A stretch of 64,000 nucleotides of DNA. Source: an uncultured Chitinophaga sp. (GTDB lineage Bacteria > Bacteroidota > Bacteroidia > UKL13-3). Within the stretch, counting starts at the first letter, position 1, and each line of letters begins with the position of its first letter. Of this stretch, positions 25,117-48,604 are shown in pieces. A program made the translations under genes and the position numbers. The stretch lies in assembly GCA_964355075.1 (NCBI GenBank), contig CAYHCF010000002.1:16480-80479 (forward strand), written 5' to 3'. The notes under the pieces are model-generated. The model did not search any database. It was not told where the DNA came from and saw only the letters and a list, made by a program, of their open reading frames with translations.

Positions 25117-25239
25117 TTCAAATTATGAGTTATGAGTTATGAATTTGATTTATTAATGTTTAACGGATAGGTGGAGATTGCATCTGCCCTTCATGGATGA
25201 AAACAATGTTTTAAATATAAAAAAAAATTATTAATTATT

Positions 25240-26544
25240 ATGAGCAAAGGACATCAAGAGGCAATTAAAGAAAATAGCATGGTTATCCAAAAGGAGATGC
25301 TTGCCAAACAATTTAAGGAATTAAGTACTGCGAGTGAACTTGGCAAAAAAGTTGTTTATACTTTTGTTCCGGGAAACCTTACCGAACTTATTCTATCATT
25401 TGACATGCTACCGGTGTACCCCGAGATCAATGCCTTGCAGTCGGGTATGCGAAAAAAATCTGCTGATTATATCCGCGACGCTGAAAAGGTAGGATACTCA
25501 GAAGATGTTTGTACTTACGTAAAATGCGATGTAGGAATGATGTTGAACGGAAATATTGGTCCAACAGGAGAAAAAATTCCGCCACCCGATTTATTATTAT
25601 TGAGCTATACAGGTTGTTTTACTTTTTTAAAATGGTTTGAGAATCTCGAACGCTTGTATCCGGGAGTACCGGTTGCCATGTTGCATACACCCTATCAGGA
25701 AGATGGTAAAATATCTCAGGATCAAATTGACTACATGGTTAAACAAATGAAAGAGGAAGTGATACCAAAAATGGAAATGGTATCCGGGCAGAAATTTGAT
25801 ATGGACCGTCTTTCAAAGATGCTTGTAAATTCAGCAAAAGCTGAAGACTTACTGGTAAAGATTTTAGAGAGTGCAAAACAGGTGCCATCACCTATTGATG
25901 CTTATTTTGCCGGCGTATATTATATAGGCCCGATTTTCACGGCTTTTAGAGGTACCGAAGAAGCTGTAGAATATTATACTGAACTATGGAATGAGGTTCA
26001 GGAAAGAATGAGATTGGGTTTAGGCCCTATTACTCCGGAAGGGGAATTGAAAGAAGAGAAATTCAGGTTGGTTGTTGAAGGACCTCCTAACTGGACTAAT
26101 TTCAGAGAGTTTTGGAAAATATTTTATGATATGGGAGCTGTTATAGTTGCCTCATCCTACACCAAAGTGGGTGGTGTTTACGATCAGGGGTTCAGACATG
26201 ACAGTAAAGAACCGCTTGAAAGTTTAGCAAAATATTGTATGGGGGTTTACACCAATCTGAACCTGCCACAACGTGTGGACATGCTTGAAAAATATGTAAA
26301 AGATTATAAGGCCGACGGTTTTCTTATCAATTCCATAAAAAGCTGCAACTCCTTCTCTGCAGGCCAATTAATGATTATGAGAGAGATTGAACAGAGGGCT
26401 GGAGTGCCTGTTGGATTTATCGAATCTGATTTGGTTGACCCCAGGTACTTTTCCTATGCCAATATTAAGAATAGATTAGAATCGTATTTCCAGATGTTGG
26501 GTCAGCGGAAAATCATAATAAAACAGGTAGAAGCAGAAGTGTAA
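25240..26544 (+). CDS. bcrB: Benzoyl-CoA reductase (class I) subunit B-like protein
   Basis: 434 aa BCR/HAD-family protein (VVYTFVPGNLTELILSFDMLPVYPE..., CTYVKCD). Second position in the four-gene set; size close to BcrB/BadE. Confidence 0.6.
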   Translation: MSKGHQEAIKENSMVIQKEMLAKQFKELSTASELGKKVVYTFVPGNLTELILSFDMLPVYPEINALQSGMRKKSADYIRDAEKVGYSEDVCTYVKCDVGMMLNGNIGPTGEKIPPPDLLLLSYTGCFTFLKWFENLERLYPGVPVAMLHTPYQEDGKISQDQIDYMVKQMKEEVIPKMEMVSGQKFDMDRLSKMLVNSAKAEDLLVKILESAKQVPSPIDAYFAGVYYIGPIFTAFRGTEEAVEYYTELWNEVQERMRLGLGPITPEGELKEEKFRLVVEGPPNWTNFREFWKIFYDMGAVIVASSYTKVGGVYDQGFRHDSKEPLESLAKYCMGVYTNLNLPQRVDMLEKYVKDYKADGFLINSIKSCNSFSAGQLMIMREIEQRAGVPVGFIESDLVDPRYFSYANIKNRLESYFQMLGQRKIIIKQVEAEV

Positions 26545-26712
26545 TTGGTAATCGGTAATTGGTAATTGGTAATTGGTAATTGGTAATCGGTAATTGGTCC
26601 CTTCGACAAGCTCAGGATGACAAATTTTGTTGTCATAGTGAGCCTGTCGAACTACGGTAATTGGTATTTGGTAATCGGTAATTGGTAATCGGTAATTGGT
26701 AATTGGTAATTG
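26541..26712. repeat. Composite repeat: 8 x GTAATYG heptamers, a 50-nt imperfect palindromic core, then 8 x GTAATYG heptamers
   Basis: Heptamer arrays at 26541-26596 and 26657-26712 lie in direct orientation. The core hairpin has arms 26602-26623 and 26630-26651 (22-nt arms, 3 mismatches). The first heptamer overlaps the bcrB-like stop codon. Confidence 0.9.
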
Positions 26713-26750
26713 GTTTAAAAAAAATAAATTAGCATATAAAATAGAATTAA

Positions 26751-39171: not shown

Positions 39172-41169
39172 ATGGAATCGTTAAAAACAGTTGGTGTTGT
39201 GGGAGCAGGTACGATGGGTTCAGCCCTCACTCAGAAATTTGCCCAGGAAGGATTTAAGGTTATTCTGGCAGACAGGACAATCAGCTTTGTAGACAGAGGA
39301 ATTAATGGCATAAAATCGAGTTTACAGGAAGGAATTCAAAAAAAGGTTTTTACAGAAGAACAAGCTGGTAAAACCCTCAGCAATATTTCCGGCACAGAAA
39401 ATCTGGAAGACTTAAAAGCTTGTGATATTGTTATTGAAGCCATATTTGAAAATTTTGATGCAAAAATTGATTTGTTTAAAAACCTATCAAATGTGTTATC
39501 CGATACTTGTATCATCGCAACCAATACTTCTTCTTTTTCAGTTAATGAATTAAGTGAATATGTAAAAAATCCTGAACGCTTTATTGGCTTGCATTATTTT
39601 TACCATGCGGCAAAAAATCGTCTGGTGGAAATTATCCCGAACAAAAAAACTTCTGCAGGTGTTATCGAAAGTGCCCGGCGTTTTTCGTTTATTTCAGGGA
39701 AAGATGCCATTTATTGTAAGGATTCCTACGGTTTTGTGGTAAACCGTTATTTTGTTCCCTGGTTGAATGAAGCTTGCAGGCTTCTGGAAGAAAATATTGG
39801 AAATATTCCTACCATTGATTCCGTTTGTTCAGAAAAATTTGGTGTAAGCATGGGTCCATTTGCATTAATGAATGCCACCGGAGTTCCCATTACCTATCAT
39901 TCCCAAAAAACACTTGAAGTATTTGGTGAACTCTATAAAACCTCAGAAATATTAAGGATTCAAACTGAATTAAACCAGCCATGGAGCCTTGAAGGAGAAG
40001 TATTGGCTGATGATGTGATCAGAAAAGAAATAGCGGAGCGGATGATCGGAATTGAATTTTTGGTATGTTCACAATTGCTTGAAGAAGAAACCTGCTCAGC
40101 CACCGAAATAAATCGTGGTGCCCGCATCGGTTTAAAATGGAGATCCGGCCCCATTGAATTAATGAGTAGATATGGCGAGGCAGAGACTCAAAGATTCGTA
40201 TCTTTAATAGCTAAAAGATACAATACCCCTGTTCCAGCTACGGTGGATTCAAGTTTCTGGAAACAAGCGTATGTATTATATGAAAAATGGGGTAAAAATG
40301 TTACCCTTACCATGTCGAGACCTGAAGATCTGAACGCACTTAATGAAGAGGTAATCAAACAACTTTTGGAAAAATTTACCATAGCTGATACAGATCCTGA
40401 AGTTGAAAATATCTTTTTGGTTGGTTCCGGAAAAGCCTTTGTTGCCGGCGCCGATATTAAATTTTTTGTTAAACACATGAAGGCGCTTTCCTTCGATAAA
40501 ATTGAAACCTTTACCCGATTCGGTCAGGACGTACTTGAAAGGATTGACCAATCAAACAAAAAGGTTATTGTTATTTTAAATGGAATGGCCTTAGGTGGAG
40601 GCTTAGAGCTGGCATTATGTGCCGACCTGATTGTGGCACTTCCAGGTGCAACTATGTCATTCCCGGAAACCGGTATTGGAATCTATCCGGGTTTGGGAGG
40701 AACACAGAGAAGCGCAAGAAGAATTGATAAAGCATTGAGTAAATACATGATTCATACCGGAAAGACATTAAGTGCAAAAGATGCTTTTGAAATTGGATTA
40801 GTAGATAAGGTCATTTCTGTTGAAGAAATGTTCGATTTGATTTATGGAAATATGGAATTACCTGCTCCTAATAAACCTGTCCTGAATGAAAAATGGCTCG
40901 CCATCAAGAATTTTTTCGAGGATCATAAGCTCGCTGAATTGCTCTCGCATCAGATTCACGATACACTGATTTCTAAAGAAGAAGCGGATCGCATTTGTAA
41001 AACATTGGCATTTAAAGCGCCTCTTGCTTTGCAATATGCCGACAAATTAATTGAAGATGCAAAAGGCTGCGCAGATGAATTGAATTATTTAACCAAAATT
41101 TTCAGCACGCAGGACGCATTGCTGGGATTGACTTCAATTGGAAAGCGGGTTGAATTTAAAGGGCACTAG
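39172..41169 (+). CDS. Bifunctional 3-hydroxyacyl-CoA dehydrogenase (N-terminal) / enoyl-CoA hydratase (C-terminal)
   Basis: 665 aa. VGVVGAGTMGSALTQ Rossmann and 3HCDH C-domains, then a crotonase fold (GSGKAFVAGADIKFF, LGGGLELALCAD, ETGIGIYPGLGGTQR). Confidence 0.85.
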   Translation: MESLKTVGVVGAGTMGSALTQKFAQEGFKVILADRTISFVDRGINGIKSSLQEGIQKKVFTEEQAGKTLSNISGTENLEDLKACDIVIEAIFENFDAKIDLFKNLSNVLSDTCIIATNTSSFSVNELSEYVKNPERFIGLHYFYHAAKNRLVEIIPNKKTSAGVIESARRFSFISGKDAIYCKDSYGFVVNRYFVPWLNEACRLLEENIGNIPTIDSVCSEKFGVSMGPFALMNATGVPITYHSQKTLEVFGELYKTSEILRIQTELNQPWSLEGEVLADDVIRKEIAERMIGIEFLVCSQLLEEETCSATEINRGARIGLKWRSGPIELMSRYGEAETQRFVSLIAKRYNTPVPATVDSSFWKQAYVLYEKWGKNVTLTMSRPEDLNALNEEVIKQLLEKFTIADTDPEVENIFLVGSGKAFVAGADIKFFVKHMKALSFDKIETFTRFGQDVLERIDQSNKKVIVILNGMALGGGLELALCADLIVALPGATMSFPETGIGIYPGLGGTQRSARRIDKALSKYMIHTGKTLSAKDAFEIGLVDKVISVEEMFDLIYGNMELPAPNKPVLNEKWLAIKNFFEDHKLAELLSHQIHDTLISKEEADRICKTLAFKAPLALQYADKLIEDAKGCADELNYLTKIFSTQDALLGLTSIGKRVEFKGH

Positions 41170-41483
41170 GAGATGAGAGATGGGAAATGAGAGATGAGAA
41201 ATGGGAAATGGAATTCGAAAAACCCTGAAGGGGTTTTATAATAATATCCACGGGTTGCTTTGTACAACGAAGCTTTAGCGTAGTTGTGCAACCCGTGGTA
41301 TGAAATGAGCAAAAGAAAGGCGCGGCACAAGAATTTATGAACAGTAAACAGAATTTAAGCCGCGCAATCTGCACAGATTAAAAAAGTGTGGTTAGTCGAA
41401 TTGGACGCTAATCTTAGGATAGAGATGGGAAAGGAAATGGGAGATGGGATGTCTGATAGTTATCGGGAGGGAAATGAGAAATA
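41170..41483. repeat. Composite repeat: GARATGR heptamer arrays flanking a core of about 210 nt with three hairpins
   Basis: 6 heptamers at 41170-41211 start right after the stop codon. A degenerate array lies at 41422-41483. Hairpins: 41219-41237 (7 bp), 41248-41258/41288-41298 (11 bp) and 41320-41326/41359-41365 (7 bp, GC-rich). Confidence 0.8.
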
Positions 41484-42619: not shown

Positions 42620-43234
42620 ATGGAACCTCAGGATAAATATAAGGTTATTGTTCTCATGGCGGGTAAATCATCAAGGTTTGGACAGCCTAAGGCTTTTTTA
42701 CCATTTAATAAAGACAGGAACTTTATACAAAACCTCCTCTTCCAATACAGGGAAGCAGGTATTGAGGAAATTATTTTGGTTACTAATGTATCCGTACTTA
42801 AAGAACTGGAAAAACAATTACAGGAAAATTTGTTTGATGGCTCTTTAAAAATTGTTATCAATCCTGAACCCGAATCGGATCGGTTTTTCAGTCTGAAGCT
42901 GGCCTTGAAAAATATGGATATCTGCTGTTCTGCCTTTATCCAAAATATTGATAACCCATTTATATCTTCTGAATTAATCAGTAAGATGAGAAATAAAATC
43001 AAACCCGGGAAATACGTTGTACCAAGCTTTCTAGGCAAAAAGGGTCATCCGGTTTTATTATCAAAAGAGATCCTTCAATACCTCTCAACAATAATGTCTG
43101 ACAGTGAAAACCTGAAAGAAATTTTGGCTGAATTTGCATTTGAAGAAGTATTTGTTGATGATGAAAGCGTTCTGGCTAATATCAACACAAAAGAAGATTA
43201 TTTCAACTATTTCAACTATGCAATCCCTGTTTGA
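42620..43234 (+). CDS. mocA: MobA-like nucleotidyltransferase, probable molybdenum cofactor cytidylyltransferase
   Basis: 204 aa. VIVLMAGKSSRFGQPKAFLPF (NTP_transf_3 motif). Context next to xdhC and Mo-hydroxylase genes. Confidence 0.65.
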   Translation: MEPQDKYKVIVLMAGKSSRFGQPKAFLPFNKDRNFIQNLLFQYREAGIEEIILVTNVSVLKELEKQLQENLFDGSLKIVINPEPESDRFFSLKLALKNMDICCSAFIQNIDNPFISSELISKMRNKIKPGKYVVPSFLGKKGHPVLLSKEILQYLSTIMSDSENLKEILAEFAFEEVFVDDESVLANINTKEDYFNYFNYAIPV

Positions 43235-44042
43235 ACGATTACACCTTGCGCTCGAAAAAAGAGAACAGGTAGCATTATGTACCGTTGTTGAAACATCGGG
43301 ATCAACCCCCTTAAAAGCCGCTTCAAAAATACTAATTTGGTCCGATGGGAAATCTTCAGGAACCATTGGAGGAGGTAATGTTGAATTTCAGGTCATTGAG
43401 GATGCTATTCAGCAAATCAGGAAAAAGGAATCAAAACTGATCGATTATTCATTATTAAAACAAAACATGTGTTGCGGAGGTACTATGAAAATTTTTATCG
43501 AGCCCCAGAAACCGATTAAACAATTAATTATTTTCGGTGCAGGGCATATCGGAAGCAATGTGGCCTTTTTTTCACAAAAGCTTTCTTATAAGATTGTACT
43601 GGTTGATGAACGTAAAGAGATGCTTGATAAAGTTGATTTGCCGGATATAAAAAAAATATTATTGCCCCATAAAAAAGCTTTTGCAGATATTACATTCGAT
43701 GGCGAAACCTATATCATCATTTGTACACACCAGCATGAATATGACAGGGAGATTTTGGCTTATTGTGTAAAACAGCAAACCGCTTATTTGGGAATGATTG
43801 GAAGTATGCGAAAAGTTCTGGTAACCAGAAAGCGGTTTTTGGATCAAAAACTATGCAGCAAAAAACGATTAGATCAGGTTGATATGCCCATGGGATTTGA
43901 TATTGGCCAGAACGGCCCCGAAGAAATAGCACTGGGTATTGTGGCAAAAATTGTGGCCGTATCTAATCATAAAGAGATTATTCAAACAACAAAATCAGAA
44001 AAATATGAAGAAGCGACTTTCGATAGTGACGGGTGCTGCTAA
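43218..44042 (+). CDS. xdhC: XdhC/CoxI family molybdoenzyme maturation factor
   Basis: ATG at 43218 (MQSLFERLHLALEKREQVALCTVVETSGSTP...) overlaps the mocA end by 17 nt. IFGAGHIG Rossmann-like C-domain. Confidence 0.8.
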   Translation: MQSLFERLHLALEKREQVALCTVVETSGSTPLKAASKILIWSDGKSSGTIGGGNVEFQVIEDAIQQIRKKESKLIDYSLLKQNMCCGGTMKIFIEPQKPIKQLIIFGAGHIGSNVAFFSQKLSYKIVLVDERKEMLDKVDLPDIKKILLPHKKAFADITFDGETYIIICTHQHEYDREILAYCVKQQTAYLGMIGSMRKVLVTRKRFLDQKLCSKKRLDQVDMPMGFDIGQNGPEEIALGIVAKIVAVSNHKEIIQTTKSEKYEEATFDSDGCC

Positions 44043-44748
44043 AGGTATTGGTAAATCAATTGCATTGCAGTTGTGTGCTGATGGATTTTTTGTAGTATTG
44101 ATAGATGTTGACAAGGAGGCAGGCATAAGTCTCGAGAAAGAGATAGGGAGTGATTTCAGCCATTTTATTCATGCCAATATCAATGATGAAAAATCGGTTC
44201 AGCAATTATTTGAAGAAGCAAAAAATAGCTACGGGTCGATTGATTTACTCGTAAATAATGCGGGTATAATCCGGGATAAAATGATCTGGAAAATGAGTCT
44301 GGATGAGTTTGATGAAGTTGTTTCGGTAAATTTGAAAGGAACCTGGATCATGTGCCGGGAAGCAGCAAAAATAATGAAAGAACAAACTTTTGGCAGAATC
44401 ATAAATATAGCCTCCAGAGCCTGGCTGGGTAATCCAGGACAATCGAATTATGCAGCCTCAAAAGCCGGTGTAATCGGGCTAACCAGGGTTCTTGCCCTGG
44501 AATTAGGAAGATACAATGTGTTGGTAAATGCTGTTGCCCCCGGCTTAATTGATACGCCTCTTACCCAAAATTTAGAAGCTTCGGTAAGAGAGAAGCTGAT
44601 ACAGGCTCAACCCACAAAAACTATTGGAAAACCGGAAGACGTAGCCAACGCAGTTTCCTTTCTGGCAAATGAAAAAACACAATTTATTACCGGACAGGTA
44701 TTGTATGTTGATGGCGGTAAAAATATTGGAGCAAATATGAGCTTATGA
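44005..44748 (+). CDS. Short-chain dehydrogenase/reductase (FabG-like)
   Basis: In-frame ATG at 44005 (MKKRLSIVTGAAKGIGKS). NNAG and the catalytic S...YAASK are present. Confidence 0.85.
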   Translation: MKKRLSIVTGAAKGIGKSIALQLCADGFFVVLIDVDKEAGISLEKEIGSDFSHFIHANINDEKSVQQLFEEAKNSYGSIDLLVNNAGIIRDKMIWKMSLDEFDEVVSVNLKGTWIMCREAAKIMKEQTFGRIINIASRAWLGNPGQSNYAASKAGVIGLTRVLALELGRYNVLVNAVAPGLIDTPLTQNLEASVREKLIQAQPTKTIGKPEDVANAVSFLANEKTQFITGQVLYVDGGKNIGANMSL

Positions 44749-47639
44749 AGCAACTCAATTTAAAAATAAACGAAAAGCAATTTAATTTTCTGGTGGGGGA
44801 ACATGAAATGCTCTCCACTGTGATAAGAGAGAAAGCCGGATTAACCGGAACAAAAATTGGATGTGAACAAGGAAGTTGTGGAGCCTGTACGGTACTGGTA
44901 AATAATGAGCCTGTATTGAGCTGTATCACACCTGCCCTTAAATTTGCTGACGCCGGAATCACTACTATTGAAGGGCTTTCCCAAAATGGTGAACTTCATA
45001 AACTTCAGGAAATATTTGTTGAAAAAGGGGCCATTCAATGTGGATTTTGTACACCGGGAATGGTGATCACATCCCTGGATTTTGTCCATAAACATCCCAA
45101 TCCAACTATAGAACAAATCAAAGAAGGACTTTCGGGTAATTTATGCAGGTGTACAGGTTATAAGAAAATAATTGAAGCAGTTGCCGAATATGCGAAAGAA
45201 GTTAACGGTTCACCATTGGCCGTTCACAGTTTAGAATCATCCAATTTAAAATCAGTAGGAGTTGGGCGACCCTACATTGAAGCTTCAAAAAAAGTACAGG
45301 GTTTGGCAGAATATGCGGATGATATCAAATTAAAAGGCGCCCTTCAAATAAAATTTGTACGAAGCATTTTCCCGCATGCCCGAATTGAAAATATTGACAC
45401 ATCGGATGCTCAGAAACTGGAAGGAGTTCGATATATCGCTACCGGAAAAGAATTGCCCATCACTTTCGGTGTGCTTCCCATTTCGCAGGATGAAAATGCG
45501 ATTGCCATTGAAAAGACAAGATATATTGGTGAAATAGTTGCTGCCGTAGCTGCCGATACCGAAGAGATTGCCAAAGAGGCCTGCAAACTGATTAAAGTAA
45601 AATATCTTCCAATCAAAGAATTTCTGTCCATTGAGGATTCATTAAATGATGCAGGTGAAAATGAAAAAATCCACCCGGAACATGGCAAGCAGAATAACAA
45701 TATTCATAAAAAAGCGGAATTGCGTTTTGGGGATCAGGAACAAGGACTGAAAGATGCCGATATTATCAGTGAAATGGACTTCCGTTTTGAAGGCGTTAAC
45801 CATGGTTTTACCGAACCCCATTCAGCATCGGCATTTTGGGATGAAAATGGGTTGACTTTAATTTCGGCAACTCAGGTTACCCATTATTTACACAGGGCGC
45901 TGGCCAAAACCATGGAAGTTCCATTGAGCCGGGTTCGTGTAATAAAACCTCATGTAGGTGGTGGCTTTGGCGGTAAAGGAGATCCATTCCCGCACGAAAT
46001 TATCGTCGCCCATATAGCCCGAAAAACAGGAAAACCTGCGCATGTTCGCTTATCAAGAGAAGAAGTTTTTATAACCAATCATGGACGACATCCTTCAAAA
46101 ATGACCATCAAGTTGGGCGCTGACCGCAATGGAATTTTAAAAGTTTTGGATGCTGATATCGCCATTGATGGAGGTGCTTATGGAAGTTTTGGTGTTGTTA
46201 CCTCCTATTATAATGGGGTATTGCTTCAGGCTCCCTATAAGCTGGATAACTTTGGGTTCAGAACCTACAGAGTATATACCAATAAACCTCAGTGCGGGGC
46301 TATGCGTGGGCATGGAGCGGTAAATTCGCGCTTTGCCGTTGAATCATTGATTGATGATATTGCACATAAAATTAAAATGGATCCGGTAGAATTACGTATA
46401 AAGAATTTCCTGGATTCAAATACGTTAACAGTGGGTCAATACCGTATCACATCGAACGGAAGCAAAGAATCTATTCTAAAAGTTGCCGGGCAATCAGACT
46501 GGAAGAACAAACATGGCAAAATGGAATCGGGACATGGATTTGGGGTTGGTTGTGGATTTTTTATCAGCGGCAGCGCTTTGCCAATTATCTGGAACGAATT
46601 GCCGCAATCGGTTGTTCATTTAAAAGTAGATTTTGATGGACGTGTTCTGGTCACATCAGGTGCCAATGATATTGGTCAGGGTAGCGATACCATGCTGGCC
46701 ATAATTGTTGCTGAAGTTCTTGGTATTGGAATGGAAAAAATATTTGTAATTGGGGCAGATACCTTGCTCACTCCGGTTGATCTGGGAAGCTATTCGAGCA
46801 GGGTAACCTTTATGGCAGGAAATGCGGCTAAGGATGCAGCAGAAAATTTAAGGGCTGAAATTGCAACTGCTGTAGCACGACGATTTACGATTGACGATTT
46901 ACGATTGACGATTGACGATTTACGATTTGCAACTGACGAATTGCGATTGACGAATTACGAAATACGAATCAGGGATCTTGTAGCTGAAATAAATTTTTCT
47001 GATAACCGGGTATTTTCAAATGATAAAAGTATTGATTTGGGATGGAATGAGGCAATTGAAATTCTGACAGCAAACCGGGGCGCTGTTTCGGTGAGTGGGA
47101 AATACATTTCACCAAAATTAGGTGGTGATTTTAAAGGAGCGGGTGCAGGTTTAAGCCCCTCCTACTCATTTGGAGCCTGTGTGGCTGAAGTTACCGTAAA
47201 CCAACAAACGGGGCATGTTAAAATATTAAATATTTGGGGGGCCCATGATTGCGGTAAAGCACTGAATCCATTGGCTGTGGAAGGACAATTAGAAGGCTCG
47301 TGGCATATGGGAATCGGACAAGCAATAAGCGAAGAAATGCGTTACTATAATGGCTTGCTGGTAAATAATAATTTCCTCGATTATAAAATTCCAACTTCAT
47401 TGGATACCCCGGATATTCATACGAATATGATAGAAACAAATGATCCGGAAGGGCCTTTTGGAGCCAAAGAATGCGGTGAAGGAGCCTTGCATCCTGTAAT
47501 CCCGGCTATTGCAAATGCTATTTTCGATGCAGTAGGAATCAGGATAACCAAGTTGCCCATAAAGAGTGAAGAGGTATTAAATCTTATGAAAGAAAAATCC
47601 GGTTTAATAAATAAAAAGGCGTCTGCCAGTTTAAATTAA
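44745..47639 (+). CDS. Molybdenum hydroxylase, fused [2Fe-2S] small subunit plus molybdopterin large subunit (xanthine dehydrogenase/CoxSL/HcrCA family)
   Basis: 964 aa. GCEQGSCGAC, CGFCTPG and CRCTGY (two 2Fe-2S sites), then GGGFGGKG, a QVTHY region, RVTFMAGNA and KECGEGA (active-site Glu region). Confidence 0.85.
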   Translation: MKQLNLKINEKQFNFLVGEHEMLSTVIREKAGLTGTKIGCEQGSCGACTVLVNNEPVLSCITPALKFADAGITTIEGLSQNGELHKLQEIFVEKGAIQCGFCTPGMVITSLDFVHKHPNPTIEQIKEGLSGNLCRCTGYKKIIEAVAEYAKEVNGSPLAVHSLESSNLKSVGVGRPYIEASKKVQGLAEYADDIKLKGALQIKFVRSIFPHARIENIDTSDAQKLEGVRYIATGKELPITFGVLPISQDENAIAIEKTRYIGEIVAAVAADTEEIAKEACKLIKVKYLPIKEFLSIEDSLNDAGENEKIHPEHGKQNNNIHKKAELRFGDQEQGLKDADIISEMDFRFEGVNHGFTEPHSASAFWDENGLTLISATQVTHYLHRALAKTMEVPLSRVRVIKPHVGGGFGGKGDPFPHEIIVAHIARKTGKPAHVRLSREEVFITNHGRHPSKMTIKLGADRNGILKVLDADIAIDGGAYGSFGVVTSYYNGVLLQAPYKLDNFGFRTYRVYTNKPQCGAMRGHGAVNSRFAVESLIDDIAHKIKMDPVELRIKNFLDSNTLTVGQYRITSNGSKESILKVAGQSDWKNKHGKMESGHGFGVGCGFFISGSALPIIWNELPQSVVHLKVDFDGRVLVTSGANDIGQGSDTMLAIIVAEVLGIGMEKIFVIGADTLLTPVDLGSYSSRVTFMAGNAAKDAAENLRAEIATAVARRFTIDDLRLTIDDLRFATDELRLTNYEIRIRDLVAEINFSDNRVFSNDKSIDLGWNEAIEILTANRGAVSVSGKYISPKLGGDFKGAGAGLSPSYSFGACVAEVTVNQQTGHVKILNIWGAHDCGKALNPLAVEGQLEGSWHMGIGQAISEEMRYYNGLLVNNNFLDYKIPTSLDTPDIHTNMIETNDPEGPFGAKECGEGALHPVIPAIANAIFDAVGIRITKLPIKSEEVLNLMKEKSGLINKKASASLN
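46880..46970 (+). repeat. In-frame array of 13 heptanucleotides (ACGATTK and variants) inside the Mo-hydroxylase CDS
   Basis: ACGATTT/ACGATTG units at 46880-46928, degenerating to ACGAATT/ACGAAAT by 46970. Translated as TIDDLRLTIDDLRFATDELRLTNYEIRI. Confidence 0.9.
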
Positions 47640-47650
47640 GGGGTAATAAA

Positions 47651-48604
47651 ATGAGTGCTGAAAAAATATATCACTATGTAAATACCATTGAGCAAGCTTT
47701 TGAAATGGCAAACCAACATGTGCAAAACTTCAAATATCTTGCTGGTGGTACTGATGTGATGGTTAACCGATTTCAGGGAAATGATGAATCAGGATGTTTG
47801 ATTGATTTGTCCGGAATAAGCGAACTGAAAGAAATTAGCGTACAAGGAAATTATCTAAAAATTGGTACGCTTGTAAAGTTGAATGATCTAAAAAAACATA
47901 ACATAATTACCAAACAATTTCCTAGTCTGATACAAGCTGCAAACGAAGTTGGATCGCCCATTATAAGAAAAGCAGCCACTCTTGGCGGCAATATTTTATG
48001 TGAAAACCGATGTTCCTTTTTTAACCAAAGTGCGTGGTGGCGTGAGGCAGTTGGTTATTGTCTGAAATGTGAAGGAGATGTTTGTATTGCTACCGGAGGA
48101 ACAAAAGCCTGTTTCTCTAAATTTGTTTCTGATACCGCACCGGTATTAGTAAGCATGAATGCGCAAATAGAGGTAATTGATCATGCGGAAAGCATAGACG
48201 AAATAAAGACCATTCCGCTCGAAAGTATCTATACTGGCGATGGAATCAATCCAAGAAATTTGTCTAAAACTGCACTTATCAAAAACATTATTCTTCCTCT
48301 TGCTATAAATTATAAAGTAATATTCAAAAAATTACGTCCCCGAGAAGCGGTTGATTTTACTTCCTTAACCACTGCAGTTTCGCTGGATCAACAAGGAAAA
48401 GTAAAAATTGTTGTAGCGGGTGTTGATCCAAAACCTATAGTAGTTGAAGGTATGATGGCTGATTCTGAGGTACTGATTAAACAAATTCTAAAAAAAGCCA
48501 GAATCGTTGACAATGATTTTTATTCAAGAGCCTATAGAAAAGAAATGATGGGCTTATACCTGAAACAAAGCATGGAGGAGTTAGCGAGAGATGAGACCCT
48601 TTGA
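47651..48604 (+). CDS. Molybdenum hydroxylase FAD-binding (medium) subunit with Cys-rich insertion
   Basis: 317 aa. AGGTDVMV and ATLGGNI FAD_binding_5 motifs. An insertion of about 40 aa (LCENRCSFFNQSAWWREAVGYCLKCEGDVCIATGGTKACFSKF, 6 Cys) sits between GGNI and SDTAPVL. Confidence 0.8.
   Translation: MSAEKIYHYVNTIEQAFEMANQHVQNFKYLAGGTDVMVNRFQGNDESGCLIDLSGISELKEISVQGNYLKIGTLVKLNDLKKHNIITKQFPSLIQAANEVGSPIIRKAATLGGNILCENRCSFFNQSAWWREAVGYCLKCEGDVCIATGGTKACFSKFVSDTAPVLVSMNAQIEVIDHAESIDEIKTIPLESIYTGDGINPRNLSKTALIKNIILPLAINYKVIFKKLRPREAVDFTSLTTAVSLDQQGKVKIVVAGVDPKPIVVEGMMADSEVLIKQILKKARIVDNDFYSRAYRKEMMGLYLKQSMEELARDETL

Follow-up and report, generated by a model that had tools for sequence, protein, structure and literature searches.

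We describe here an array of tandem heptanucleotide units that lies in frame inside a gene for a molybdenum (Mo) enzyme of an uncultured Chitinophaga sp., a freshwater member of the Bacteroidota. The stretch of DNA analyzed, hereafter the window, comprises 64,000 nucleotides (nt) of contig CAYHCF010000002.1 (assembly GCA_964355075.1, positions 16,480 to 80,479 of the forward strand). In our opinion, the array is probably a passenger copy of a dispersed heptanucleotide family, resembling the short tandemly repeated repetitive sequences (STRR) and the long simple-sequence repeats (LSSR) of other bacteria, which became fixed in frame at a permissive, putatively solvent-side connection of the Mo-binding subunit. 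The features of the window on which this opinion is built are the following:

44745..47639, + strand: Mo enzyme gene, 964 amino acids (aa), [2Fe-2S] and molybdopterin-binding large subunit fused (Pfam, PDB match, AlphaFold2 model)
46880..46970, + strand: heptanucleotide array (Tandem Repeats Finder periods 7, 14 and 21; unit listing)
46884..46967, + strand: net insertion of 84 nt, equal to 12 units or codons 714-741 (homologue and codon alignments, motif spacing)
46955..46969, + strand: 15-mer TTACGAAATACGAAT, the signature of a dispersed composite repeat family (copy count in the genome)

Thirteen consecutive seven-nucleotide registers, standing in tandem, make up the array. According to the sequence and the unit listing, units 1-7 read, from position 46880, ACGATTT, ACGATTG, ACGATTT, ACGATTG, ACGATTG, ACGATTT and ACGATTT, and units 8-13 read GCAACTG, ACGAATT, GCGATTG, ACGAATT, ACGAAAT and ACGAATC. 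An initial annotation, made from the letters of the window, had spoken of thirteen ACGATTK-type units; its span is right and its count slightly generous, since only seven units are strict ACGATTK, one being divergent and five degenerate. Tandem Repeats Finder (TRF) reported the array at period 7 (46880-46960, 11.6 copies, score 85, 75% matches), at period 14 (46879-46960, score 108) and at period 21 (46880-46967, score 99). The open reading frame around the array translates it as RRF-TIDDLRL-TIDDLRF-ATDELRL-TNYEIRI-RDL, exactly as given in the initial annotation, with ...AAENLRAEIATAVARRF before and RDLVAEINFSDNRVF after. As three 7-nt units encode one 7-residue repeat, the peptide takes the form of four heptads. 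Only one of the six frames, the gene's own, is open across the array; the remaining five (two on the same strand and three on the opposite one) contain stops. No inverted repeat was found within the array, folding of its RNA gave no hairpin signal (z = -0.55), and no target-site duplication or terminal structure marking an insertion is present at the array. That we are dealing with a tandem heptamer feature and not with chance is confirmed, because the genome yields 169 TRF rows of period 7 (along with 129 of period 14 and 62 of period 21) compared with 3 at period 6 and 48 at period 8, and because 106 of 109 homologues lack the insert.

These 109 homologues were drawn from a collection of 5.8 billion proteins, all of them belong to uncultured Bacteroidota, and they are 73-87% identical to the host protein, hereafter P0001. 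The distance between the motifs FMAGNAAK and GKYxSPKLGG is 68 residues in 106 of them and 96 residues in P0001. The excess is therefore 28 residues, that is, 84 nt or 12 units, and it consists of the four heptads TIDDLRL, TIDDLRF, ATDELRL and TNYEIRI. No equivalent non-repetitive segment, which the initial annotation had named as an argument against an insertion, occurs in the 106 of the 109 homologues measured. The closest relative, P0002, is 87% identical and forms a fully supported (100*) sister branch on the tree; in the codon alignment, both P0002 and its counterpart from GTDB (L006) have non-repetitive DNA at the site and no insert. Nothing resembling ACGATT was found at this site in P0002, L006, L010 or L007. 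Likewise, among proteins of comparable length in the 5.8-billion collection, none but P0001 has so much as a 5-residue word in common with the insert peptide. An alignment with the structure 1rm6_A covers the conserved helix ...AAEELKGVLVKAAAKKL without interruption, is broken precisely by the insert and restarts after it. Taken together, the homologue alignments, the fixed spacing and the break in 1rm6_A bear out the earlier proposal that the array is an insertion at a place where the family has a short connection following a conserved helix.

The genome as a whole (3.44 Mb in 66 contigs, 37.7% G+C, 99.99% complete) offers a plausible source for such an insertion. Merging of the TRF rows left 161 period-7 arrays, which belong to several unit families: ACGATTT, ACCGATT, GGTAATT, CCCATTT, AATTAAG and others. 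Long open frames (stop-free stretches of at least 200 codons, 30-codon margins) make up 72.5% of the genome and hold only eight of the 161 arrays (5%), a 14-fold depletion; the longest of these eight is the one in the Mo enzyme gene. About 15 other arrays in the genome are built of the ACGATTT unit. Moreover, the 15-mer TTACGAAATACGAAT from the 3' end of the insert has 28 exact copies in the genome and 33 when up to one mismatch is allowed, while 20 shuffled motifs gave 0-6 matches at the latter threshold and the reversed pattern gave 1+1. At the other copies, (ACGATTT)n usually stands before the 15-mer and nTACGAATGTACGAATGGGGA after it, an arrangement that agrees with the insert in both order and polarity. 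Alignments over most of its length also link the insert to the intergenic composites C25:12770-12842 and C8:42930-43025; we give more weight to the exact 15-mer because low-complexity sequences align easily. Since the 15-mer is shared with the dispersed copies, the insert appears to be one more copy of a composite repeat of this kind. The genome of the sister (G001) has 305 matches to (ACGATTT)3 at up to three mismatches (control 5), yet carries no insert in its Mo enzyme gene; three other genomes have 0-5 such matches. The family thus displays the characters of heptanucleotide LSSR or STRR: a 7-nt unit repeated head to tail, many mostly non-coding arrays and recurrence at unrelated loci.

The same data allow us to weigh the idea that the array was born locally, as a microsatellite that grew by slippage from a chance proto-repeat without any import. 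Tandem arrays can indeed expand in place, and the missing marks of insertion (target-site duplication, terminal structure) would fit such growth, as would a shared proto-repeat seed in the orthologue P0004, which has a short array at the same position (see below). We nevertheless consider a local birth unlikely: the four relatives named above have nothing ACGATT-like at the site, the 15-mer is dispersed and stands in the same order relative to the ACGATTT units as in the intergenic copies, and the unit is that of the genome's own abundant family.

Other members of the repeat population deserve a brief description. At C20:59675-61190, consecutive copies of the dispersed element follow one another about 105 nt apart (TTACGAAATACGAATnATACGAATGTACGAATGGGGACACCTGTCGGGTTGAGCGGAGTCGAAACC...) and include the 15-mer of the coding insert. 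The window itself holds arrays of other units (GTAATTG/GGTAATT, GAGATGA/GGAAATG and TTATGAG) at 26541-26598, 26656-26714, 41169-41211 and 25123-25157; the pair at 26.5-26.7 kb is separated by a spacer of about 57 nt.

The array is identical, over 89 nt, in contigs from SRR24858484, ERR3856789 and ERZ4201065 and in the reference, i.e., in at least four assemblies. All six contigs that encode the Mo protein carry the same in-frame allele, and those bearing the array match the window at 100% identity for 7-9.7 kb. Such agreement leaves next to no room for the view that the array, or its length, arose by misassembly of repeat-rich reads, an objection already raised in the initial annotation. It is true that several contigs of the genome begin with heptamer arrays and that the ERR3856787 assembly is broken within the Mo gene. 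However, this break lies 132 nt into the gene, away from the array; the 89 nt have unique flanks and should be short enough to be spanned by single short reads; the frame is intact, with 223 conserved codons downstream; and the same sequence was recovered in SRR24858484, ERR3856789, ERZ4201065 and the reference. We therefore hold an artefact to be extremely improbable.

Some further details of the assemblies are worth recording. Contigs C1, C3, C36 and C54 start with heptamer arrays, and the arrays of C31 and C55 adjoin runs of N; heptamer arrays seem to be assembly break points. The segment 39505-50639 of the window represents one clone sampled repeatedly, in at least two unrelated accession series (SRR24858484 on the one hand and ERR3856787/ERR3856789/ERZ4201065 on the other). 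Variant alleles were also sought through the neighboring genes, as the proteins of the FAD (flavin adenine dinucleotide) subunit and of the short-chain dehydrogenase were each found on seven contigs against six for the Mo protein; this candidate was rejected, the difference being caused by the fragmented ERR3856787 assembly.

A coding repeat with a unit of seven nucleotides raises the question of a slippage-based on/off switch, and the initial annotation had suggested exactly this. Its arithmetic is correct. In simulations, the gain or loss of one or two units brought a stop at codon 718 or 725, and a change of three units kept the frame; the number of units thus sets the frame, as in phase-variable loci. 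Truncation would cost the product about 240 residues, G911-E912 among them, so that unit changes not divisible by three do truncate the enzyme ahead of its C-terminal Mo-binding part, as had been stated. G911 and E912 are invariant in 41 sequences, among them outgroups at 23-41% identity, and we take this C-terminal Gly-Glu motif to hold the catalytic glutamate of the family.

On the other hand, the long perfect tract expected of a phase-variable locus is missing: the longest perfect period-7 stretch is about 20 nt, T and G alternate in the units, and the 3' half is degenerate. The distribution of T and G is itself informative. A pure (ACGATTT)n array is stop-free and reads TIYDLRF, and a pure (ACGATTG)n array has TGA in all frames. 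Among the seven near-perfect units, G is confined to the phases in which it produces GAC (Asp for Tyr) or TTG (Leu for Phe), and both units in the GAT-TKA phase retain T. In the other ACGATTN runs of our scan, position 7 is nearly always T, the variants there being ACGATGT, ATGATTT and AAGATTT instead. The pattern looks like the trace expected from selection for an open frame and a soluble peptide, on what is a small sample of units.

Selection on the gene as a whole points in the same direction. Relative to the sister, the rates of nonsynonymous and synonymous substitution (dN and dS) are 0.09 and about 1.9, with dN/dS of about 0.05, and the part 3' of the array (208 aligned codons) has dN of 0.08; all residues invariant in the family are present in the host protein. 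To judge from these values, purifying selection acts strongly on the gene, also on the stretch 3' of the array. A search of metagenome contigs of the Joint Genome Institute (JGI) for alleles with one or two units more or fewer (exact flanks, gap 76-104) gave 0 matches and is uninformative, since even the in-frame allele went unmatched.

A close comparison here is neuO of Escherichia coli K1, an established heptanucleotide coding switch with an AAGACTC array of 3-53 units, in which full translation requires a number of units that is a multiple of three; the OFF state was seen in 65.6% of genomes, and within a culture about 7% of cells have an array of off length (PMC13001214). Our array shares with neuO the 7-nt coding unit, the setting of the frame by the unit number and a peptide repeat of seven residues. 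The neuO array, however, is perfect, lies at the 5' end and occurs in both ON and OFF states among genomes and within cultures, whereas the array described here is interrupted, lies in the middle of a gene for a metabolic enzyme of a free-living bacterium and was found in one state. Under a contingency scenario, slipped-strand mispairing would alter the unit number and truncation at 718-725 would turn the enzyme off. Besides the frame arithmetic, the loss of the invariant G911-E912 and the precedent of neuO, this scenario can draw on the first seven units, which are identical at six of seven positions. We still find it quite improbable, given a perfect tract of at most about 20 nt against the 3-53 perfect units of neuO, and assemblies that are all ON and identical against the high OFF fraction of neuO genomes. 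Furthermore, a mid-gene array in a cytoplasmic redox enzyme, whose operon contains maturation genes, is not of the typical surface or modification type, and the T/G pattern together with the decayed 3' half suggests stabilization over mutability. For these reasons (interruption, a frame-keeping T/G pattern, a single in-frame allele in all assemblies, purifying selection and a cytoplasmic metabolic function), we regard the potential switch of the initial annotation as unsupported, if still conceivable.

Turning to the protein, AlphaFold2 (AF2) was run on an alignment of 41 sequences and gave a model with a mean predicted local distance difference test score (pLDDT) of 75.6. In this model the native helix is prolonged (H687-722) and is followed by a loop (723-730) and a second helix (H731-748) leading into the native strand; the insert thus models as a helix-turn-helix hairpin that extends the native helix. 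The pLDDT values of the insert block are 72, 56 and 75, compared with 82-92 in the flank before it and 87-90 in the flank after it. Hydrophobic residues (I715, L718, I722, L725, L732 and I739) recur at a/d-like spacing.

It is tempting to read such a hairpin as a selected protein innovation, a coiled-coil-like element that would provide a new contact (oligomerization, a partner or a membrane tether), the DNA periodicity being a relic of its origin. The hydrophobic residues at a/d-like positions, the predicted helix-turn-helix, the replacement of Tyr and Phe by Asp and Leu through T-to-G changes and the persistence of the insert in a gene under purifying selection are all compatible with this idea. 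Yet the insert is confined to one lineage among the 109 homologues and is absent from the protein database, the model is of moderate confidence, and the operon shows no obvious partner. In addition, similar inserts in unrelated enzymes of the genome fit a DNA-level process better. We accordingly think it improbable that selection for a new contact explains the insert.

These other inserts are found in four genes of the genome. The Pfam match of a DegT aminotransferase (C12:6900-8471) is split in three by two inserts, one of which contains TCATCTC heptamers. In a second DegT gene (C60:1355-2326), AGCCAGA heptamers occupy the corresponding position of the protein. AGAATCC units occur in the N-terminal domain of a GFO/IDH/MocA oxidoreductase (C12:4603-5748). 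In an Mpl-like Mur ligase (C54:10048-11454), CCATCTC heptamers stand on both sides of a GTCATCCTGAGCTTGTCGAAGGG core and are translated as ISPPPITHLSCHPELVEGSHLPSPISLS; this insert is absent from the 81%-identical orthologue in the sister genome. With two DegT genes, the Mur ligase and the oxidoreductase in a single genome, the earlier remark that the repeat family can colonize coding DNA while the frame stays open is supported beyond the Mo gene. As for the two DegT/DnrJ/EryC1 paralogues, their inserts stand just before the conserved GCMGTIGTTSFFPSKNLG and differ in unit, TCATCTC in C12 and AGCCAGA in C60; the other insert of the C12 protein, further on, reads …SSGQAELRA….

The tolerance of a repeat family in frame brings to mind the Rickettsia palindromic elements (RPE), selfish repeats that Ogata et al. 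reportedly described in 2000 in frame within protein-coding genes. RPE are palindromic and about 100-150 bp long. The likeness lies in a dispersed family tolerated in frame at putative surface positions of several unrelated genes per genome. The array in the Mo gene differs from RPE in consisting of tandem heptamers with neither an inverted repeat nor a fold signal, so that the palindromic character of RPE is lacking. A partial likeness is offered by the inserts of the Mpl-like ligase and of DegT, which combine heptamers with a palindrome-like core.

A distinct case is P0004, an orthologue from a New Zealand groundwater metagenome-assembled genome (L001 3001-5835, GCA_023251675.1; 81% identical). 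P0004 is longer by eight residues at the very codon position where the host gene has its array; its DNA there reads GCGAATT ACGAATG gtg ACGAATT ACGAATG and belongs to the same heptamer family. Even the 3' junctions are alike: ACGAATG AAA GAT CTT in P0004 versus ACGAATC AGG GAT CTT in the host gene. On the tree, P0004 falls into a fully supported clade with the insert-less P0062, P0119 and P0120, apart from P0001 and P0002. A single origin of the P0001 and P0004 inserts was rejected by this topology and by the approximately unbiased (AU) test (p = 7e-5, the group having been named after the tree was seen). The genome of P0004 has 11 matches to TTACGAATTACGAAT-like 15-mers (control 0) and ACGAATT arrays of its own, and the ACGAWTK arrays of P0001 and P0004 each match the repeat variant of their own genome. 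The simplest reading of such a recurrence is that one permissive site was independently colonized by the resident repeat of each genome; alternatively, a short transferred tract or a site preference may account for it. A recombination tract shared with P0004, suggested by a slight rise in sliding-window identity just 3' of the insert, was discarded, the rise being explained by the divergence of P0002 from the consensus. At the same loop, P0120 has five additional residues of an unrelated kind.

One might go further and suppose that the heptamer family is a self-propagating repeat that repeatedly enters one protein loop across lineages. We regard this as a rather doubtful possibility. If true, it would imply a site- or structure-directed copying mechanism, which would also generate heptad hairpins in enzymes and possibly length- or phase-variable alleles.

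Returning to the passenger copy, we propose the following course of events. After the split from the sister lineage, a composite repeat would have been copied into the gene. Three factors may have allowed its survival: the ACGATTT unit yields no stop on the coding strand, the length of the insert is a multiple of 21 nt, and TIDDLRL-like heptads would lengthen the native, putative surface helix before folding back into a helical hairpin. The peptide would later have gained polarity through T-to-G changes (Tyr to Asp, Phe to Leu), with T retained at the one phase where G would create TGA. The interruptions and the decay of the 3' half should reduce slippage. The enzyme would then be made at full length, and the insert would have no regulatory role.

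Several observations weigh against this proposal. The seven near-perfect units, constant at six of seven positions, could still slip. The evidence on alleles comes from assembled contigs, in which low-frequency length variants may be hidden, and, because the contigs are 100% identical over 7-9.7 kb, they represent one clone with little evolutionary depth. The confidence of the predicted hairpin is only moderate. Finally, random insertion and selection alone would not predict that P0004 has a shorter array of the same heptamer family at this codon.

How does the array compare with what is known of heptanucleotide repeats? According to Mrazek et al. (2007), as cited in PMC4679880 and PMC4692102, among the long simple-sequence repeats of many bacteria, those with seven-nucleotide units are the most frequent; they are under-represented in genes, where repeats usually have units that are multiples of three. 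Repeats of GGGAATC/GGGGAYT have been described in Xanthomonas and Nostoc (Rehm et al. 2015, PMC4692102), and TAACTGA repeats in Beggiatoaceae, cyanobacteria and five Bacteroidetes (MacGregor 2015, PMC4679880). Other heptamers occupying the same spacers were likewise on record for Bacteroidetes (MacGregor 2015, PMC4679880). The LSSR papers deal mainly with intergenic arrays, their coding case being a two-unit set near the end of purC (PMC4679880, PMC4692102). The family reported here resembles LSSR and STRR, including the STRR of heterocystous cyanobacteria, in its tandem 7-nt units, many arrays and several unit families per genome, in its under-representation in coding DNA and in its patchy, lineage-specific spread (305 matches in the sister, 0-5 in three genomes). 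It differs in the units themselves (ACGATTK/ACGAATT, GGTAATT, ACCGATT, CCCATTT and others) and in having a copy of 12 units deep inside a conserved enzyme gene, in frame. Twelve out-of-phase units in a conserved enzyme are less commonly described, yet this is the same kind of element, and neuO is a coding case.

Overall, the gene offers a well-bounded example of a non-triplet simple repeat that entered a conserved enzyme and persisted there, with an insert-less sister and donor-like copies elsewhere in the genome. Persistence seems to be allowed by a unit free of stops on the coding strand, a length divisible by 21 nt and a location at which heptads can prolong a putative surface helix. The example also calls for caution, as an out-of-phase coding repeat need not be a contingency locus. 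Recurrence at one position in two lineages, together with the other in-frame inserts, bears on how heptanucleotide arrays spread, a question that has been asked since the cyanobacterial STRR.

Finally, we would like to comment on the host gene and its surroundings. The host protein has Fer2, Fer2_2, Ald_Xan_dh_C, MoCoBD_1 and MoCoBD_2 domains, all above the Pfam cut-offs. This is the domain set of xanthine dehydrogenase and the Mo hydroxylases (two [2Fe-2S] domains, an a/b hammerhead and Mo-cofactor-binding domains 1 and 2), from which we conclude that the protein is a fusion of a small [2Fe-2S] subunit with a large molybdopterin subunit, belonging to the xanthine-dehydrogenase family. Its best PDB match is 1rm6_A, the alpha subunit (HcrA) of 4-hydroxybenzoyl-CoA reductase (E 1.3e-166), and the AF2 model superimposes on 1rm6 with a template modeling (TM) score of 0.90 relative to the target, at 37% identity. 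The gene is followed by an FAD-binding subunit and preceded by three genes:

47651..48604, + strand: FAD-binding subunit, 317 aa (Pfam FAD_binding_5; 1rm6_B alignment)
44005..44748, + strand: short-chain dehydrogenase, 247 aa (gene calls, Pfam adh_short, ORF list)
43218..44042, + strand: XdhC/CoxI-type Mo-cofactor insertion chaperone, 274 aa (Pfam XdhC_CoxI, XdhC_C)
42620..43234, + strand: NTP_transf_3 (MobA/MocA-like nucleotidyltransferase), 204 aa (Pfam, ORF list)

The FAD subunit aligns best to 1rm6_B (HcrB; E 7.6e-39), and four of its Cys residues align with the four Cys of the 1rm6_B stretch CTFYNQSEWWRSGNGYCLKYKGDKCHVIVKSDRCY, presumably the ligands of the extra [4Fe-4S] cluster in the 1RM6 structure. 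An FAD subunit with HcrB-type Cys points to an enzyme of the 4-hydroxybenzoyl-CoA-reductase type in uncultured Bacteroidota. Compared with the enzyme of Thauera aromatica (1RM6/1SB3), the alpha-like part and the FAD subunit with its four aligned Cys are similar; the differences are the fusion of the gamma ([2Fe-2S]) and alpha subunits into one chain of 964 aa and the 28-residue hairpin, which is absent from 1RM6. On the basis of the JGI product names of the homologues and the 37% identity to HcrA, the host enzyme may be called 4-hydroxybenzoyl-CoA-reductase-like. In annotation, the gene is best treated as an intact fused subunit of this kind, neither a pseudogene nor a chimera. Upstream, the stop codon of the short-chain dehydrogenase gene overlaps the start codon of the Mo enzyme gene.

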